64,000 nucleotides of DNA from Candidatus Methanomethylicaceae archaeon (GCA_025057955.1 JANXER010000002.1:5391-69390); one strand, 5' to 3'; counted from the stretch's first letter, positions 6,137-29,844 are shown. Notes: generated by a model from the letters alone, not told the origin. Program-made: numbers and translations.

Positions 6137-7222
6137 TTATCGCCTAATTAAGCTCTCATATTCATTGATGAAGTTTGGCATAATAACACCAAATATATTT
6201 GGATGAAGAATGCTTGCAAGTATCAAAGTTGCATCAGCAACTCTAGGGCCTGGTCTCTCCAAGGCGTTAGCTGCACTTCCATTAAGAATATAAATTCTAT
6301 TGTTCTTAATAGCATTTATTTGATCAAATCCTGGAAGTCCTTTTAAATAATTGATCAATTCATCAGGAGGTCTTGGAAGTGACATAGAACTCATTATGAG
6401 CACATCAGGATTAGCAGCTACAATTTGCTCTGGATTCACTACAATCCATCCACTTTTATCACTAAATACATTTTCTCCACTTGCAATTGAAATTAACTCA
6501 TGTAAGTAGGTTCCATTACCTGTAGCCCACATTGGATTAGGCCAGACCAAGAAGACTACTTTTTGCTTGTTTACATTAGATAGCTTAAATTGTACCTCTC
6601 TTATTGTAGATTCTATTTTACTAATAGTGGCCTCTCCTTCCTTGAATTTAGAGGTAATTTTTGCAATTAATTTTATGTTATTCAAAACATCTGAAAGACT
6701 GCGAGACTCCAATGCTACTACTGTAAGTCCAAATCCCTCTAAGGTTGAAAGGAATTTTTTCTGTAGACTTGCATCAATTAAAACAAGATCAGGTTTTAAG
6801 GCAGCAACTCTCTCAGGGCTAAGCGTGGTGACGCCACCAACAGTCTTAATTTTACCAGTATTTATAAGATCCAGTAATTCTTTAGGATAATTGGAAAATT
6901 GATCAACCCCTACAATTTTATCTGAAAGTCCAAGGGCGAAGAGCATTTCAGTTATGGAAGGCGTGCATGAGACTATTCTATTTGGCTCTGATTTTATACT
7001 CACCATCCTTTCAAGAGCATCCCTTATGAAGAGAGGATAATGAAGTTCCTGAATAGCGCCTAGTTCTTTTTTGAGTAATTTTAGTTCATTTGATACCTCA
7101 GTGAGTGAAGCATTTAGCTGTCTAAGGTTATTTATGATTGTATTATTTGTGTAAGCAATAAAAATGCTATTGGCTAGCCCAATTAATATGGCAATTATTA
7201 CAATGACAAACAATTTTTTCAT
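6137..7222 (-). CDS. Periplasmic-binding-protein-type substrate-binding protein (BtuF/FepB class) with N-terminal TM anchor and coiled-coil spacer
   Basis: N-terminal TM segment, then a Peripla_BP_2-like domain. First gene of the BtuFCD-type operon. Confidence 0.7.
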   Translation of the reverse strand: MKKLFVIVIIAILIGLANSIFIAYTNNTIINNLRQLNASLTEVSNELKLLKKELGAIQELHYPLFIRDALERMVSIKSEPNRIVSCTPSITEMLFALGLSDKIVGVDQFSNYPKELLDLINTGKIKTVGGVTTLSPERVAALKPDLVLIDASLQKKFLSTLEGFGLTVVALESRSLSDVLNNIKLIAKITSKFKEGEATISKIESTIREVQFKLSNVNKQKVVFLVWPNPMWATGNGTYLHELISIASGENVFSDKSGWIVVNPEQIVAANPDVLIMSSMSLPRPPDELINYLKGLPGFDQINAIKNNRIYILNGSAANALERPGPRVADATLILASILHPNIFGVIMPNFINEYESLIRR

Positions 7223-22672: not shown

Positions 22673-22779
22673 ATCGATAGAAAATAATTTATTAGCTATG
22701 ATGTGCCATTGCAGAACTGATGAATGATGTATGACTCCAATACTGAGCTCTTTTTTAAAATATTAATTTCCATTATAAT

Positions 22780-23139: not shown

Positions 23140-24207
23140 GTGATTATTATGAACATATTGGAAATAGTTATGGGGGGAATTGAAGCACTTCAAGATTATG
23201 TAGCATTTCATGTAATCACTTGCTTAATTCCTGCTTTCTTGCTTGCTGGAGCTATAACTACATTTCTCTCTAGAGAGAGTATCCTCAAGTATCTGGGATC
23301 TGAAACTAAGAAAATCATATCCTTTCCACTAGCTGCAATATCCAGCATGGCATTAGCAGTATGTTCATGCACAGTAATACCAATTGCCTCGGGATTATAT
23401 AGAAAAGGAAGCAGCATTGGTCCAGCCTTTATAATGTTATGGACTGCTCCTGCCATGAATATACTCGCCTTAGTCTACACTGGAGCTATTATAGGAATAG
23501 ACATGGCCATAATGAGAATTCTAGCCGCACTTTCCACATCTCTAATAGTAGGTTTAATAATGGTACTTGTATTTAAGAAAGAGGAAATAATGAGATTGAG
23601 GCAATCTTCCAATAAAAAATTGTCTGAAACAAAAATCATTAGTAAAAATGCATTTATATTAATAATCCTTTTAGTTGTTACACTATTACTACCAAATTAT
23701 CTATTAGCAAATAGACCTTACATTGAAAAAGTTGCATTATTCTCTATGCTAATGTTAATAACGATAATATACACTTGGCAATCAATAGACATTGATTCAA
23801 TAAAAGCTTGGTTAAATGAAACTCTATGGTTCGTTAGAATGATCTTCCCTCTACTTCTCGCAGGTGTGTTTATTGTAGGAATGGTAGGAGAAATACTACC
23901 AAGGGATTGGATAGCCACATGGTTTGGAGGAAGTGGATTATTAGCAACTTTTTTAGCCACTCTCATAGGAGCCGTAAGCTATTTTGCAACTCTAACTGAG
24001 GCTCCATTCGTTCATACACTAATGGGATTAGGCATGGGGAAAGGACCTGCCTTAGGATTGCTTCTAGCGGGACCTGGATTGAGTCTACCTAATATGCTTG
24101 CAATAGCTAGAATCTTCGGAACAAAGAAGGCTATAGTTTATATTATGACAACAATTGCTCTAGCTACAATTATGGCATTCATTATAGGAAACTTATTCTG
24201 GATTTAA
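23140..24207 (+). CDS. COG0701-type permease (ArsP-like, CSC motif)
   Basis: 355 aa polytopic. AVCSCTVIP recalls the ArsP TPFcSCS motif. Divergent from arsR. Confidence 0.55.
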   Translation: MIIMNILEIVMGGIEALQDYVAFHVITCLIPAFLLAGAITTFLSRESILKYLGSETKKIISFPLAAISSMALAVCSCTVIPIASGLYRKGSSIGPAFIMLWTAPAMNILALVYTGAIIGIDMAIMRILAALSTSLIVGLIMVLVFKKEEIMRLRQSSNKKLSETKIISKNAFILIILLVVTLLLPNYLLANRPYIEKVALFSMLMLITIIYTWQSIDIDSIKAWLNETLWFVRMIFPLLLAGVFIVGMVGEILPRDWIATWFGGSGLLATFLATLIGAVSYFATLTEAPFVHTLMGLGMGKGPALGLLLAGPGLSLPNMLAIARIFGTKKAIVYIMTTIALATIMAFIIGNLFWI

Positions 24208-24301
24208 TTTTTTATTAGTTTTTTAATACAATTATAAAATGCCTTTTAAGAGTCTAAAATTATATAAGTAAGGTTTATATAACTCGGTTATAATTAATAA
24301 C

Positions 24302-24724
24302 ATGGTGATTGATATATCAAAGATATCTATAATAGTGGCTTCTGAAAAATTAGATAAATTATTTCCAGCAGTTACTTTGGCAACAACAGCTACTATGATG
24401 GGCTGGGAGGCAGAAATTTTCTTCACATTTTGGGGATTATTAGCTTTAAAAAAGGACTATGAGCCAAAAGAGGTAAGCACAGATTATAAAATTTATGAGG
24501 ATAATTTGAGAAAAGCAATGAGTAGTGGTGCTATGCCAAATTGGAAAGAAATACTAGAACAGGGAAAAAAGACCGGAAAATTGAAGGTTTATGCTTGCTC
24601 CACAACAATGAATCTTTTCAATATAAAAGCTGAGAATTTAGCAGAATATGTTGATGATGTTGTCGGTGCAGCATTCTTCCTAAGTAGGTCAAAGGATTCA
24701 AATATTACTCTTTTCATATCCTAG
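24302..24724 (+). CDS. DsrE/DsrF-like sulfur-relay family protein
   Basis: 140 aa with a DsrE-like fold pattern. First gene of the sulfur-trafficking operon. Confidence 0.55.
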   Translation: MVIDISKISIIVASEKLDKLFPAVTLATTATMMGWEAEIFFTFWGLLALKKDYEPKEVSTDYKIYEDNLRKAMSSGAMPNWKEILEQGKKTGKLKVYACSTTMNLFNIKAENLAEYVDDVVGAAFFLSRSKDSNITLFIS

Positions 24725-24732
24725 GTGATTTT

Positions 24733-24963
24733 TTGAAAGTAGATTTAATTGTTGATGCAAGACATAAGTCCTGTCCAGGGCCACTTATGACATTAGTTGA
24801 AGCTATTAGAAAAGCTGTTCCAGGACAGATTGTTATGCTTCTATCAACCGATCCAGCATCTCCAAAAGATGTAGAAGAGTGGGCTTCTATTGTTGGGCAT
24901 AAAGTTATAAAAGTTGAAAAAATCGACGACACTTATCAAATATATTTGGAGGTTAAAACTTGA
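24733..24963 (+). CDS. tusA: TusA-like sulfurtransferase
   Basis: 76 aa with CPGP (CPxP) active site. Confidence 0.8.
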   Translation: MKVDLIVDARHKSCPGPLMTLVEAIRKAVPGQIVMLLSTDPASPKDVEEWASIVGHKVIKVEKIDDTYQIYLEVKT

Positions 24964-26198
24964 TTTATAGCGATTTATCAAAATCAATAAAAGAGCTCAT
25001 AGAATTTCATGGAATACCAAAAAGAGAAGTATATTTGGATTATGAGAACTCCGGCTTAATAATTCCAGAGGCTTTAAGGGCTATGGAGGAGGCGTATAAG
25101 TTTAATGGAAGAGGACATCCATCCATAACCCATTTGCCAGGTTGGCTTAGTTATGAGAGCTTGTTCAAAGCTACTTCAATTTTTGCTTCTATAATTAATT
25201 GCAATCCTGAGGAAATAGTTTATACTCATAGCGGATCAGAAGCAAACAATTTAGCAATATTGGGTTCTGCAGTAATTTCACCTAAAGGAAGAAGAAAGAT
25301 ATTTGTTTCTAGCATTGAACACTTAAGCGTAATATTTCCAGCTGAGAGATTAGAAGAAAGAGGCTTTAAACTCATAAAAATACCAGTTGATAAAGAGGGA
25401 TACATTGATTTGGATTTTATATCTGAGCATGTAGATGATGAGACTTTAATGATTAGTGTAGGAATAGTAAATCATGAAATAGGAACTATACAGGATATAA
25501 AAGCATTAAGAGATATTACTAAAGATAAAAATAAAGAAGTCTTAATCCACACAGATGCATGTGCTGCTTTAGGAAGAATAAAATTGGATATGAAGGAACT
25601 TGATGTCGACTTAGCATCATTTAGCAGTCATAAAGTCTATGGACCCAAGGGAGTAGGAGCACTATATATTAAGGAAGGTGTAAAACTGGAGCCAATAATT
25701 TATGGACAATTAAGTACGCAAAAGCTTTGGCCAGGAGTTGAAAATGTTCCTGGCATACTAGGCTTCTCAAAGGCAGTTGAAACAATATATTCAAATTTCA
25801 CTGAATACAAGTCTAAAATGATTGAACTGAGGGATATGTTAATAAACAGCATACTTAATAACATAGATCATACTTTACTAAACGGTCCATATGGTGATAA
25901 GCGTTCTCCAGACAATATAAATATAAGCTTCATATATTGTGAGGGGGAAGCTTTAACTGTTGAACTAAGTATGAATGGAATTTACGTTTCCAGCGGAAGT
26001 GCTTGCACTAGTCGAGTTTTAGAGCCTAGTCATGTTTTATTAGCAATTGGTAGAAGATATGAAGAGGCGCATGGAAGTTTGTTAATGAAAGTTACACCCT
26101 TTCATACAAAATCAGATATGGAATATGTTTTGGAGGTTCTACCAAGAATTGTAAATAGATTAAGATCCATAAGCCCAGTCAAACCATCCAATAGGTGA
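24960..26198 (+). CDS. iscS: Cysteine desulfurase (class V aminotransferase, IscS/NifS)
   Basis: SSHKVYGPKG PLP-lysine motif and SSGSACTS active-site Cys loop. Confidence 0.9.
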   Translation: MIYSDLSKSIKELIEFHGIPKREVYLDYENSGLIIPEALRAMEEAYKFNGRGHPSITHLPGWLSYESLFKATSIFASIINCNPEEIVYTHSGSEANNLAILGSAVISPKGRRKIFVSSIEHLSVIFPAERLEERGFKLIKIPVDKEGYIDLDFISEHVDDETLMISVGIVNHEIGTIQDIKALRDITKDKNKEVLIHTDACAALGRIKLDMKELDVDLASFSSHKVYGPKGVGALYIKEGVKLEPIIYGQLSTQKLWPGVENVPGILGFSKAVETIYSNFTEYKSKMIELRDMLINSILNNIDHTLLNGPYGDKRSPDNINISFIYCEGEALTVELSMNGIYVSSGSACTSRVLEPSHVLLAIGRRYEEAHGSLLMKVTPFHTKSDMEYVLEVLPRIVNRLRSISPVKPSNR

Positions 26199-26695
26199 GA
26201 AATTTGTCAAGTAGAGTTCCTCTCACTTATGGAAAGAAAGTTATTGAATTATTCAAAAATCCAAAAAATGTTGGTAAAATTGAGGGTGCTAATGCTGAAG
26301 CGCTTGCAGGAAGTTTAGCATGTGGAGATATGATTGCAATTTATTTAAAAGTGGATGAAACTAGTGATAAAATAATTGATGCTAAATTTGAAAGTTACGG
26401 TTGTGCAGCAAATATAGCTGCAGCAAGCATATTGACTGAAATGATAAAGGGAAGAAATTTGAGCGAAGCATGGAAGATCTCTTGGAAAGATGTATCTGAT
26501 GAGCTTGGTGGACTTCCTCAAGTAAAATATCATTGTGGTGTTCTTGCAGTTGGAGCGCTTAGAAGAGCCATAAGAGCCTATTATGAAAAAAGGCAAAAGC
26601 CAAATTGGTTACCAAAAGAGCTATCACAAGAAGAGAGGCATGCATTAGAAGAGGAAAAGTTGATGGAAATTTTAGCCAAGAGGTCTCAAAAGTAG
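26195..26695 (+). CDS. iscU: IscU/NifU-like Fe-S scaffold
   Basis: FKNPKNVG...ACGD...GCAANI...HCGVLAV. The start is GTG or TTG (no ATG precedes the conserved N-terminus). Confidence 0.8.
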   Translation: MRNLSSRVPLTYGKKVIELFKNPKNVGKIEGANAEALAGSLACGDMIAIYLKVDETSDKIIDAKFESYGCAANIAAASILTEMIKGRNLSEAWKISWKDVSDELGGLPQVKYHCGVLAVGALRRAIRAYYEKRQKPNWLPKELSQEERHALEEEKLMEILAKRSQK

Positions 26696-26701
26696 TACTA
26701 G

Positions 26702-26819
26702 TGCGGGGGGTGGGATTTGAACCCACGAAGGCCTACGCCACAGGATTTCTTAGTCAGATCTTAAGTCTGGCATGCCAAAATGGCAGCCTGCCCCTTTGAC
26801 CTGGCTTGGGAACCCCCGC
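26702..26819 (-). tRNA. Intron-containing tRNA, class II architecture; candidate tRNA-Leu(UAA) with non-canonical intervening sequence(s)
   Basis: 118 nt. Acceptor GCGGGGG/CCCCCGC with A73, 3-bp D stem, T arm GTGGG-TTCAAAT-CCCAC, 13-nt variable arm. An internal CAGA-CUUAAGA-UCUG hairpin presents UAA. A GCAGG/CCUGU helix encloses about 42 nt. Confidence 0.6.
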
Positions 26820-26926
26820 ATAAAAAAATATTTCCTCGGAAATATTTAGAGTTTATCAGTGGACAATATCGATATAAATAAATGAAACAAAAAAATTATA
26901 ATTTACTTGATAGGTTTTTGAATGGG

Positions 26927-27001
26927 GGGCCCGTAGCGCAGCATGGATAGCGCACCGGCCTTCTAAGTCGGTGGTCCCGGGTTCAAATCCCGGCGGGCCC
27001 G
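26927..27001 (+). tRNA. tRNA-Arg(UCU)
   Basis: Acceptor GGGCCCG/CGGGCCC. Anticodon loop CTTCTAA. T-loop TTCAAAT. Discriminator G. Confidence 0.9.
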
Positions 27002-27182
27002 CTTATTGCTTTATAAACTGCTTAATTCGAATTTTATAAATTTTTAATATTAATTAGCAATGTAAAATTTCGATTAGAGATCGCTTATCATTATTTAGGT
27101 TTCATGGTTTTATTTAATTCTTTTAATTTTCATGAGTAAAATTATAAATAGAAAAGCTAGGATTTAAAATTTTAACATTGAT

Positions 27183-28115
27183 ATGAGTGCTAGAAGGTTG
27201 CTTGCAGAAATAAATAACGAACTCTATGAAAGATTAAGAAAGATTGATGATACTGATGAATTCTTTGAATTCTTAGTAAAGCCATTGAAAAATACCATTA
27301 GAATAAATACTTTAAAGGTGAGGTTGGAATATGCTATAGAGAGGTTGCGCAATTATATAATAGGAAGAGTACCATGGTGTAAAGAAGGCTTCTATTTTTC
27401 CATAAGCGAATTTGGAGGTTTGCCTGAATATAAACTTGGAATTATATTTTCGCAAGAGGCGGCTTCCATGATTCCTCCACTAATTATGGAATTGCAACCA
27501 GGTATGACTGTATTAGATATAGCAGCCGCTCCTGGAGCTAAGACCACTCAAATAGCGCAATATATGGAAAATAATGGTTGTATAATTGCAAATGATATAA
27601 ATCCTATTAGAGCAAATATTTTAATATCCAATATACAGAGATGTGGAGTTATTATAGCAGCAGTAACAGTGAAGGATGGGAGATTCTTTAGGAAATTGAG
27701 AAATAAATTTGACTCAGTGCTTGTGGATGCTCAATGCAGCAATATTGGGATGATTAGGAAGAGTTATAAACATGCTAAGCTTTGGAGGCTAAAAAGTGTA
27801 TACTCTCTTTCAAAGCTTCAAAAGGATTTATTGGCCTCTGGAATTTATGCTGCAAAGCCAGGAGGGGTGATCGTATATTCCACATGCACCGTAGATCCTA
27901 TAGAGAATGAGGAAGTAGTTGATTATGCCTTGAGTAATTTCGAAGTAAAAATTGAAAAAGTGGAAGGATTGCCGATAAAAACTAGTGGAGCAATATTAGA
28001 GTTTGAGGGAAAAAAATATAGCGAAGAGGTGAGAAAATGCTTGAGAATACATCCACAGAACAACGACACCGAGGCATTCTTCATCGCCAAACTGAGAAAA
28101 TTAGAGAGTTATTGA
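27183..28115 (+). CDS. NOL1/NOP2/Sun-family RNA (cytosine-C5)-methyltransferase, catalytic part
   Basis: AdoMet motif DIAAAPGAKT, catalytic DAQCSNIG and STCT motifs. Terminates inside an A-run. Confidence 0.8.
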   Translation: MSARRLLAEINNELYERLRKIDDTDEFFEFLVKPLKNTIRINTLKVRLEYAIERLRNYIIGRVPWCKEGFYFSISEFGGLPEYKLGIIFSQEAASMIPPLIMELQPGMTVLDIAAAPGAKTTQIAQYMENNGCIIANDINPIRANILISNIQRCGVIIAAVTVKDGRFFRKLRNKFDSVLVDAQCSNIGMIRKSYKHAKLWRLKSVYSLSKLQKDLLASGIYAAKPGGVIVYSTCTVDPIENEEVVDYALSNFEVKIEKVEGLPIKTSGAILEFEGKKYSEEVRKCLRIHPQNNDTEAFFIAKLRKLESY

Positions 28116-28480
28116 AAACTCAATTTTATGCTGATGTAGATTTAGAATTTTATATAACTAGTAGAAGAGTTTATGCTTTCAAAGGGTGTAATTTAGAATT
28201 GAATTTTGTAAGAATGGGAATTCATTTTGGTACTTTGGAAGAGGATGGACTAAGGCTTTCCATAGAAGGGAGCTTTATAGTCGGTAAGGTTGCAAAGAAG
28301 AATATTATAGAATTGAGTGATGAAGATGCAATCAAATGGTTAAAAGGGGAGAATTTAGAAGTTAATAAAGAATTGAAAGGCTATTATATAATAAAATGGA
28401 TGGAATACTTTTTAGGATGTGGAAAGGCTTTAAATGGAAAATTAATAAATTTTGTTCCAAAGGATAGAAGGATCTCTTAA
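28037..28480 (+). CDS. RsmF-type C-terminal domain, apparently the frameshifted continuation of the NSUN gene
   Basis: Overlaps the upstream ORF by 79 nt in another frame. The conserved part begins IRELLKTQFYADV and ends GYYIIKWMEYFLGCGKALNGKLINFVP (RsmF C-terminal pattern). Confidence 0.5.
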   Translation: MLENTSTEQRHRGILHRQTEKIRELLKTQFYADVDLEFYITSRRVYAFKGCNLELNFVRMGIHFGTLEEDGLRLSIEGSFIVGKVAKKNIIELSDEDAIKWLKGENLEVNKELKGYYIIKWMEYFLGCGKALNGKLINFVPKDRRIS

Positions 28481-28515
28481 TTCATTCCGTCAAGTATTTA
28501 ACCATAAAAAATAAT

Positions 28516-29844
28516 TTGATTGATATGATTGAAAAATTTGAATGGTATGATGTTTTTGTAAAGAGGGACTATAAACCAGATTTAGAGAATGATGTAGTAG
28601 TTATATTTAAAGTAACACCATCTGAAGGTTTTAAAATTGAAGATGTAGTTGGAGCAGTAGCATCGGAGAGCAGCGTAGGCACATGGACAACATTATCCAT
28701 ATTACCCGATAGAATTTGGAAACTCATGGGGAAGGCTTATGAAATAATAAAGTTAGAAGGAAACTCTCTAATAGCAAAGATAGCTTATCCCATTGAATTA
28801 TTTGAAGAAGGAAATATGCCTGCGTTTCTTGCATCAATTGCCGGAAACATATTTGGAATGAGAAGAGTGAAAAGCTTAAGGATTGAAGATGTATACTTCC
28901 CTTATTCTTTCATGAAATTCTTCAAGGGACCATTGAAAGGAATAGATGGTGTAAGAAATATCTATAAGATATATGGAAGGCCAATTTTAGGAACTGTTCC
29001 AAAGCCTAAAGTAGGATATACTCCAGAGGAGCTTGAAAAAATATCCTATGATATTCTTTCGGGAGGAATGGATTATATTAAGGATGATGAAAATTTAGCC
29101 TCTCCTCCCTTCTGTCGTTTTGAAGAGAGAGCTAAGGGAATTATGAGAGCAATAGATAAAGCTGAGAAGGAAAGTGGAGAGAGAAAAGTTTGGCTTGCTA
29201 ATATAACAGCTGATGTAAAGGAAATGGAGAGAAGGCTTAAACTAATAGCAGATTATGGAAATCCATTTATTATGATAGATGTAGTAATAATTGGTTGGTC
29301 CTCACTTAATTATATAAGAGATCTCGCAGAAGAGTATAATCTAGGAATACATGCCCATAGGGCATTTCATGCTGCATTTACAAGGAATAGAGATCATGGA
29401 ATGTCTATGTTCGCTCTATCAAAGCTCCTCAGATTAATGGGGGTCGATCAACTTCATATTGGCACTCCTGAAGTTGGTAAATTAGAGGCGAAAACCGAAG
29501 AAGTTATAGAATATGCAAAAGTTTTAAGAGAAAGCATTTATAGGTCAAATGAAGTAAATCGCATGGAACAACCGTGGTATCATATAAAGCCAGTTTTACC
29601 AACATCCTCTGGAGGCTTGCATCCTGGAACCTTGCCTGAGGTTATTAAATCGCTTGGAGTTGATTTAGTGATTCAAGTTGGCGGTGGAGTATTAGGACAT
29701 CCAGATGGCCCTAGGGATGGAGCAGCTGCAGTTAGACAAGCAGTGGAAGCAATAACTAAGGGCATTCCTCTGAAGGATTATGCTACGCAGCATAAGGAGT
29801 TAAGAAGAGCGCTTGAAAAATGGGGAATTCTAAGAATTTCATAA
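28516..29844 (+). CDS. rbcL: Ribulose-1,5-bisphosphate carboxylase/oxygenase large subunit, archaeal form III
   Basis: 442 aa. GGMDYIKDDEN (GGxDFxKDDE), HAHRA, Gly-rich C-terminal region. Confidence 0.9.
   Translation: MIDMIEKFEWYDVFVKRDYKPDLENDVVVIFKVTPSEGFKIEDVVGAVASESSVGTWTTLSILPDRIWKLMGKAYEIIKLEGNSLIAKIAYPIELFEEGNMPAFLASIAGNIFGMRRVKSLRIEDVYFPYSFMKFFKGPLKGIDGVRNIYKIYGRPILGTVPKPKVGYTPEELEKISYDILSGGMDYIKDDENLASPPFCRFEERAKGIMRAIDKAEKESGERKVWLANITADVKEMERRLKLIADYGNPFIMIDVVIIGWSSLNYIRDLAEEYNLGIHAHRAFHAAFTRNRDHGMSMFALSKLLRLMGVDQLHIGTPEVGKLEAKTEEVIEYAKVLRESIYRSNEVNRMEQPWYHIKPVLPTSSGGLHPGTLPEVIKSLGVDLVIQVGGGVLGHPDGPRDGAAAVRQAVEAITKGIPLKDYATQHKELRRALEKWGILRIS

Follow-up and report, generated by a model that had tools for sequence, protein, structure and literature searches.

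Locus and gene features

The DNA analysed here is a stretch of 64,000 nucleotides (the window) whose proteins are labelled Candidatus Methanomethyliaceae archaeon, which current taxonomy assigns to Thermoproteota, class Methanosuratincolia. Its sequence matches NCBI contig JAVQRL010000001.1 of GCA_033582615.1. A 118-nt tRNA gene lies on the minus strand of the window and occupies exactly 26819..26702, with G1 at 26819 and the discriminator A73 at 26702; CCA is absent from the gene. Its G+C content is 58%, compared with a window average of about 33%. The gene, its predicted exons and introns, and two flanking features are listed below, with the basis of each assignment in brackets.

26840..26848, minus strand: A/T-rich box TAAATATTT, 21-29 nt upstream of G1, a candidate archaeal TATA box (position and composition)
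26702..26819, minus strand: whole tRNA-Leu(UAA) gene (Rfam match end to end; ARAGORN on the spliced product)
26787..26819, minus strand: exon 1, tRNA positions 1-30 (sequence, intron solving)
26767..26786, minus strand: predicted intron 1, 20 nt, CUGCCAUUUUGGCAUGCCAG, at tRNA 30/31 (pre-tRNA 34-53) (full hBHBh' motif)
26760..26766, minus strand: exon 2, 7 nt, ACUUAAG, tRNA positions 31-37 (intron solving, ARAGORN)
26747..26759, minus strand: predicted intron 2, 13 nt, AUCUGACUAAGAA, at canonical 37/38 (pre-tRNA 61-73) (central helix H in the canonical register)
26702..26746, minus strand: exon 3, tRNA positions 38-73 (sequence, ARAGORN, intron solving)
26688..26691, minus strand: short T run (CUUUUG), 11-14 nt past A73

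The RNA sequence of the unspliced gene is GCGGGGGUUCCCAAGCCAGGUCAAAGGGGCAGGCUGCCAUUUUGGCAUGCCAGACUUAAGAUCUGACUAAGAAAUCCUGUGGCGUAGGCCUUCGUGGGUUCAAAUCCCACCCCCCGCA. It contains a 7-bp acceptor stem (GCGGGGG/CCCCCGC), a 3-bp D stem (CCC/GGG) with the Leu-type D loop AGCCAGGUCAAA, a 13-nt variable arm (GGCGUAGGCCUUC) and the T arm GUGGG-UUCAAAU-CCCAC. Two further helices are seen in the unspliced sequence, an outer one formed by GCAGG and CCUGU, whose strands stand 42 nt apart, and an inner hairpin, CAGA-CUUAAGA-UCUG. A sequence-only reading of the locus had described a class II, Leu-type body on the strength of the acceptor, D stem, T arm, 13-nt variable arm and A73; all of these were found, as was every other element that it named, including the interval of about 42 nt, the outer helix and the inner hairpin. 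The cloverleaf, long variable arm, 3-bp D stem and A73 place the gene among archaeal class II tRNA-Leu(UAA) genes. It is neither a split nor a permuted gene, as its three exons are colinear within 118 nt.

Common tRNA finders overlook the gene or misread it. The Rfam tRNA model RF00005 matches 26819..26702 end to end with 35.0 bits (gathering score 29, E = 0.0013; model positions 1-71), and its alignment places a single 38-nt insert in the anticodon loop. With default settings, ARAGORN reported no tRNA at 26819..26702. In the E-value mode of Rfam, 26699-26819 on the minus strand was labelled tmRNA at 19.4 bits, with a gathering score of 47. This label is spurious and results from clan competition in Rfam, and it could mislead automated annotation.

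A convergent NifU-like gene ends 6 nt from A73; its protein, read from a GTG start, has no exact counterpart on record, where the gene call differs. A divergent tRNA-Arg(UCU) gene (26927-27002, plus strand) lies 107 nt upstream; other neighbours encode an RsmB-like methyltransferase and a form III-like RuBisCO. By their Pfam labels, the products encoded in 23140-29844 include an ArsP-type permease, DrsE-like and TusA-like proteins, a cysteine desulfurase and a NifU-like scaffold, along with an RsmB/NOL1-like methyltransferase, a separate PUA-domain ORF and a RuBisCO large-subunit homologue. No introns were found in the other four tRNA genes of the window, and a sub-threshold Rfam scan of the window revealed no further hidden or disrupted tRNAs. 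At 22694-22748 (plus strand) there are sub-threshold matches to C/D-box sRNA families, namely sR9 (28.5 bits, gathering score 36, E = 0.11) and sR1 (19.7 bits), and this segment may be an unannotated C/D-box guide RNA.

A tRNA-Arg gene also adjoins tRNA-Leu(UAA) in two of the related loci described below, a Bathyarchaeota record (L005; tRNA-Arg(CCU), 6494-6568) and a Thermoproteota metagenome-assembled genome (L014; 410-495). The L014 tRNA-Arg gene is 86 nt long, with an apparent short insert past the anticodon. The pairing of Leu and Arg tRNA genes may be an old gene neighbourhood.

Predicted exon-intron structure

The splicing motif used in the analysis consists of two 3-nt bulges with a 4-bp helix between them, located at the exon-intron boundaries, which is the strict hBHBh' form of the bulge-helix-bulge (BHB) motif (PMC6379350, PMC3239211). 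The relaxed form, hBH or BHL, retains the central helix, one bulge and the outer helix (PMC3239211). All possible introns (a,b) within the 118 nt were enumerated for the BHB register. Cleavage falls after the second bulge nucleotide, a register that is self-consistent for the canonical 37/38 case, and for 19 of 20 homologues, cutting in this register produced a valid mature tRNA.

A central helix with all four pairs in register arose by chance in 119 of the enumerated cases, as expected (about 2% of pairs). The complete hBHBh' motif had a sole candidate, the intron spanning pre-tRNA positions 34 to 53. A blind search that admitted any solution with one or two introns, provided that it had at least three of four pairs in the central helix H together with a valid class II cloverleaf, returned the combination of introns 34-53 and 61-73 as its top solution.

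Intron 1 displays the strict motif in its 3-4-3 form. Its central helix pairs G25-A28 (GGCA) with UGCC, all Watson-Crick; the bulges are GG|C and AG|A; the inner helix h' is 5 bp long (UGCCA/UGGCA); and the outer helix h joins A22-G24 (AGG) to C32-U34 (CUU) with 3 bp. Intron 2 fits the relaxed hBH/BHL form. Its central helix pairs C32-A35 (CUUA) with UAAG through four Watson-Crick pairs in the canonical 37/38 register, the anticodon stem serves as its outer helix and the 3' bulge is AA|A; a 9-nt loop contains the 5' splice site, and there is no h' helix. The sequence-only reading had placed inserts at non-canonical positions on both sides of the anticodon and proposed their BHB-dependent removal. 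Two inserts with motifs of four Watson-Crick H pairs each support the proposed removal, and the modelling of bulge-helix-bulge motifs called for there gave the full motif at (34,53) and the relaxed one at (61,73). As for position, the expectation holds for intron 1, at 30/31, and fails for intron 2, which sits at canonical 37/38.

In shuffle tests, the letters of each intron were permuted and Watson-Crick H helices in the required register were counted. For intron 1, such a helix together with an inner helix of at least 4 bp appeared in 2.4e-4 of trials; for intron 2, the H helix appeared in 0.011 of trials. A search of the window allowing up to three mismatches found no further copies of intron 1.

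The exons divide the tRNA as follows. Exon 1 carries the 5' strand of the acceptor stem, the D arm, G26 and C27-G30 of the anticodon stem; exon 2 carries the anticodon UAA at 26763..26761 on the minus strand; and exon 3 comprises A38, the UCCUG stem strand, U44, the variable arm, the T arm, the 3' strand of the acceptor stem and A73. Removal of both introns in silico yields an 85-nt RNA, GCGGGGGUUCCCAAGCCAGGUCAAAGGGGCAGGACUUAAGAUCCUGUGGCGUAGGCCUUCGUGGGUUCAAAUCCCACCCCCCGCA. The ARAGORN check that the sequence-only reading had called for was clear in its outcome: silent by default on the gene, the program called tRNA-Leu(taa) with all stems intact once both introns were removed. The mature anticodon arm, CAGGA-CUUAAGA-UCCUG, has a 5-bp stem and a 7-nt loop with U33 and a purine at 37, and the minimum-energy fold of the 85-nt product at 37 C is the cloverleaf.

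A sequence-only profile was built from the mature tRNAs of 14 homologues. The two-intron product scored highest, at 88.2 bits, compared with 67.5 for the unspliced gene. By the criterion of tRNAscan-SE 2.0, removal of an intron raises the score of the tRNA model (PMC8450103). Measured with these substitutes, intron removal had that effect on the present gene, as ARAGORN passed from no call to a clean call and the profile from 67.5 to 88.2 bits.

Other outputs of ARAGORN were rejected. Run with the -i option on the unspliced gene, the program proposed a 'tRNA-Leu(aag)' of 95 nt by treating 23 nt at 32/33 as an intron; this product has a poor anticodon arm and scores 68.3 bits, compared with 88.2 for the two-intron product. 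When only intron 1 or only intron 2 was removed, the calls were malformed or a Gly(gcc) call was forced.

The folding of the full precursor is less favorable to the model. Its minimum-energy fold has -48.9 kcal/mol, and the BHB conformers, at -37.9 to -39.7 kcal/mol, do not coincide with that minimum. Precursors of tRNAs with non-canonical introns commonly have a minimum-energy fold other than the BHB form. The departure of the precursor fold from the BHB conformers is a weak point of the thermodynamic argument.

Related genes in other archaea

Species-representative genomes were scanned for tRNA-Leu(UAA) genes in which the part 5' of the anticodon loop was longer by 10 nt or more. This yielded 19 archaeal loci, and a metagenome scan added one more (L021). 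Automatic intron solving placed an intron at pre-tRNA position 34 (tRNA 30/31) in eight homologues, which are the following (lineage names here and below are the labels of the records).

L009, Thermoproteus: 30/31 intron of 20 nt
L015, Pyrobaculum: 30/31 intron of 28 nt
L006, Vulcanisaeta: 30/31 intron of 15 nt
L005, Bathyarchaeota: 30/31 intron of 20 nt
L010 and L020, Odinarchaeota: 30/31 intron of 23 nt
L014, Thermoproteota metagenome-assembled genome: 30/31 intron of 11 nt
L021, metagenome contig: 30/31 intron of 25 nt

The sequence-only reading had regarded non-canonical introns of this kind as a lineage marker of Thermoproteales, Korarchaeota and some other uncultivated groups. That view proved too narrow, since the 30/31 intron occurs in Thermoproteales, Bathyarchaeota and Odinarchaeota records and in the window, labelled Ca. 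Methanomethyliaceae.

Across the 30/31-intron genes, the central helix varies in a compensatory manner (GGCA/UGCC, GGCG/CGCU, GGGC/GCCC, GGCG/CGCC, CGCC/GGUG and GGCA/UGCU). In a 20-column extract of the motif from nine sequences, 98% of the cells of h and H were paired, a percentage inflated by the script that set the intron boundaries of the homologues, which favours paired H helices; the need for a valid mature tRNA limits each homologue junction to 1-4 registers. None of 500 shuffles reached the observed score, and sliding the 3' partner by 1-3 columns reduced pairing to 54% or less. Both-sided changes occurred in three of the four H pairs, so that compensatory change, as expected of a BHB intron, is found in these nine genes. 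The outer helix of AGG with CUU is invariant in all nine and consists only of conserved exon sequence.

The exons of the metagenome contig L021 equal those of the window gene except for a compensatory change of C27-G43 to G27-C43, and L021 has no intron 2. The outer stem and the junction of exons 2 and 3 are thereby confirmed. The window gene shares its D arm, T arm and acceptor stem unchanged with L021 and L016, the last being a tRNA-Leu(UAA) gene (6223-6327, minus strand) of the Nitrososphaeria metagenome-assembled genome DRTY6_bin.138 with a single 17-nt insert in the D loop. Comparison of L016 with the window gene shows that near-identical exons carry introns at different sites. Besides the 30/31 intron, the Odinarchaeota tRNA-Leu(UAA) genes (L010 6442-6575 and L020 3551-3684) have another one, about 26 nt long, within the variable arm. 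The Odinarchaeota tRNA-Leu(GAG) genes (133 and 130 nt; L010 2692-2824) have two inserts each, and the identity between the exon ends of the tRNA-Leu(GAG) gene and the window gene is 95-97%.

A closer relative of the window was reached through a 90%-identity relative of the neighbouring methyltransferase. This contig (L022, GCA_026414045.1) is 91-96% identical to the window around the tRNA-Leu gene. Its own tRNA-Leu gene is likewise 118 nt long and has four substitutions, at pre-tRNA positions 53, 64, 73 and 85. Positions 53 and 73 are second bulge nucleotides, at the 3' ends of introns 1 and 2 respectively; position 64 falls within the loop of intron 2 and position 85 within that of the variable arm. 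The two-intron model leaves each of these positions unpaired. Of the inner hairpin's four pairs, two are lost through two of the substitutions, so the hairpin is not conserved.

Alternative interpretations

Three other accounts of the locus were weighed against the two-intron model, and two of them concern the position of the inserts. The sequence-only reading had offered one 35-nt insert at canonical 37/38, with the helix GCAGG/CCUGU and the anticodon GCC; the rival as weighed here allows an insert of roughly this length at that site or close to it, with GAA or GCA as anticodon in other registers. Such an arrangement is what the Rfam alignment implies by putting one 38-nt insert in the anticodon loop, and ARAGORN -i can be made to force a tRNA-Gly(gcc) after removal of intron 2. 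However, none of the five 35-nt registers (36-70, 37-71, 38-72, 39-73 and 40-74) has a 4-bp BHB central helix, a Gly, Phe or Cys anticodon is at odds with the long variable arm and Leu-type D arm, and the CUUAAGA loop is carried by all homologues. The products of this splicing score 63.4 and 69.6 bits in the profile versus 88.2 for the two-intron product, and the 63.4 bits of the version with a 35-nt insert and GCC are the lowest of all. With no BHB register and a misfitting anticodon, a tRNA with a single canonical intron can be given virtually no credence here. The other proposal, taken strictly, makes the inner hairpin the anticodon arm of the mature tRNA, with a non-canonical intron on either side, near 26/27 and 43/44. 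Its perfect 4-bp stem, (C)CAGA-CUUAAGA-UCUG(A), encloses the correct Leu(UAA) loop, and its product scores 84.3 bits in the sequence-only profile, close to the best. Yet the junctions (30,49)/(29,48) and (67,79) have no BHB, the stem would have C and A mismatched at its fifth pair, and two of the four hairpin pairs are lost in L022 through its substitutions at pre-tRNA 53 and 64. Outer strands of the CAGG/CCUG type are moreover the only anticodon stem in L021 and L009, and the outer stem of L021 shows a compensatory change. Most of the hairpin is intronic: CAG is the 3' end of intron 1, UCUG lies in the 5' part of intron 2, and only A31 and the 7-nt loop (32-38) belong to exons. This arrangement is highly improbable as it stands; the anticodon UAA and the presence of two inserts were correctly recognized, and the mature stem is CAGGA/UCCUG, not the inner hairpin.

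The third account is that the locus is a tRNA-Leu pseudogene or a relic disrupted by insertions, which yields no functional tRNA. The low Rfam score (35 bits), the silence of ARAGORN at default settings and a precursor whose minimum-energy fold is not the cloverleaf are what one would expect of such a relic. Against it, each insert has a perfect central helix in exactly the register needed for splicing, no stem of the spliced product is broken, and the L022 gene has kept the same length with substitutions confined to bulges and loops. Genes with the same intron score similarly low in Rfam (L009, 37 bits; L014, 38.3 bits), and no second tRNA-Leu(UAA) was seen within the window. Decay of the gene is thus very unlikely. 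Very probably, the gene is a functional class II tRNA-Leu(UAA) with a predicted strict-BHB intron at 30/31 and a predicted relaxed-BHB intron at 37/38.

Comparison with known systems

Multi-intron tRNA genes are well documented in archaea: they have two or three introns, whose sites may be canonical or non-canonical and whose BHB motifs may be strict or relaxed. The groups that have them include Thermoproteales, Thaumarchaeota, Korarchaeum, ARMAN and, recently, Asgard archaea (PMC4033280, PMC4090602, PMC3239211, PMC8450103, PMC11291895). Two or three introns may be spaced so tightly that a BHB forms only after a neighbouring intron has been excised, and tRNAscan-SE 2.0 iterates for this reason (PMC8450103). 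The gene described here adds to this well-documented type of archaeal multi-intron tRNA, and every sequence-level character of the type that we examined is present in it. We found no literature on tRNA introns or EndA in Verstraetearchaeota/Methanomethylicia.

Multiple-intron tRNAs of Thermoproteales/Thermoproteota were reported by Sugahara et al. in 2007 and 2008, as cited in PMC4033280, PMC4090602 and PMC8450103. Like these, the window gene would have two short BHB-type introns, one canonical and one non-canonical, spaced so that one must be removed before the outer helix of the other is intact (PMC8450103). The likeness to the Thermoproteus gene L009 extends to a 20-nt intron at 30/31, a GGCA/UGCC central helix and an AG| bulge. 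In contrast to Thermoproteales, the source of the window is labelled Ca. Methanomethyliaceae and only one of the five tRNA genes in the window has introns; the recovered Thermoproteus and Pyrobaculum genes also differ in having the 30/31 intron alone, without the canonical one.

The gene at L014 512-619 (Thermoproteota archaeon INS_M20_B145) has introns at both 30/31 and 37/38, a tRNA-Arg neighbour, and a second intron of 13 nt at 37/38 whose sequence resembles that of the window (AUCUUUUAAAGAA, compared with AUCUGACUAAGAA). It differs from the window gene in that its first intron is only 11 nt long, lacks the h' helix and has the central helix CGCC/GGUG, and in that the H helix of its second intron has three of four pairs; its tRNA-Arg gene is on the same strand as tRNA-Leu and has an insert of its own. 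The thaumarchaeotal tRNA-Leu(UAA) genes of Nitrosopumilales (L004, L007, L008, L011, L017 and L018) are also class II and combine a 13-17-nt intron at 37/38 with a non-canonical intron 5' of the anticodon. The latter interrupts the D stem in its 3' strand (pre-tRNA 27) instead of lying at 30/31, and the exons differ in sequence from those of the window gene, with an acceptor stem of the type GGAGG... Pre-tRNA-Cys(GCA) of ARMAN-2 has a 13-nt intron of the relaxed hBH (BHL) form that was cleaved in vitro by the broad-specificity EndA, epsilon2 (PMC3239211). The ARMAN-2 intron lies at 59/60 in another tRNA and lineage, whereas the relaxed intron of the window is at the canonical site.

Proposed processing of the precursor

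Cleavage by EndA and joining by an RtcB-type ligase are established for archaeal tRNA splicing (PMC4090602, PMC3239211, PMC6379350). For the present gene, we infer transcription, the enzymes, the order of cleavage and aminoacylation. Transcription of the minus strand would produce a precursor of at least 118 nt. The A/T-rich box upstream of G1 is a candidate archaeal TATA box from its position and composition. The T run past A73 lies within the 3' end of the convergent NifU-like ORF and could, as a tentative suggestion, be an oligo-T terminator.

In the precursor, intron 1 and exon nucleotides 22-28 and 32-34 would fold into the strict 3-4-3 bulge-helix-bulge, and UAAG of intron 2 would pair with C32-A35 into the relaxed hBH/BHL form with the anticodon stem as outer helix. 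The archaeal splicing endonuclease EndA would cut each bulge past its second nucleotide, an RtcB-type ligase would join the exons into the 85-nt tRNA product, and end trimming and CCA addition would follow. A rough tblastn search of the 64-kb window with an approximate Methanocaldococcus EndA query, a weak negative at best, gave no credible match to a splicing endonuclease gene.

Intron 1 is probably excised before intron 2 as a rule, since it interrupts the outer helix of intron 2 and since both motifs compete for C32-U34. The same order is suggested by folding, because after removal of intron 1 alone in silico the minimum-energy fold is the cloverleaf with the hBH motif of intron 2. It is unproven, given that a conformer with both central helices at once, at -39.7 kcal/mol, is comparable in energy.

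Significance and evolution

The value of this gene lies mainly in annotation, as it escapes ARAGORN at default settings and is given the wrong anticodon by the general Rfam model. Annotation of that kind would leave a genome seemingly without a tRNA for the UUA/UUG leucine codons. With this gene, a lineage labelled Ca. Methanomethyliaceae joins those with multi-intron tRNAs, and the two-intron model predicts a broad-specificity splicing endonuclease in the genome, of the (alpha-beta)2 or epsilon2 type, which the relaxed motif of intron 2 would need.

The recurrence of the 30/31 site in four distant groups has a modest bearing on the origin and persistence of non-canonical tRNA introns. One ancient orthologous intron, older than the split of the Thermoproteales, Bathyarchaeota, Methanomethylicia and Odinarchaeota lineages, is a speculative and rather unlikely explanation; an intron of that age could have been held in place by an outer helix made wholly of conserved exon sequence, A22-G24 with C32-U34. 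The alternative to ancient retention is repeated independent insertion at a favourable 30/31 site. Should the intron prove to be ancient, it would be a rare case of a non-canonical tRNA intron traceable across TACK and Asgard archaea.
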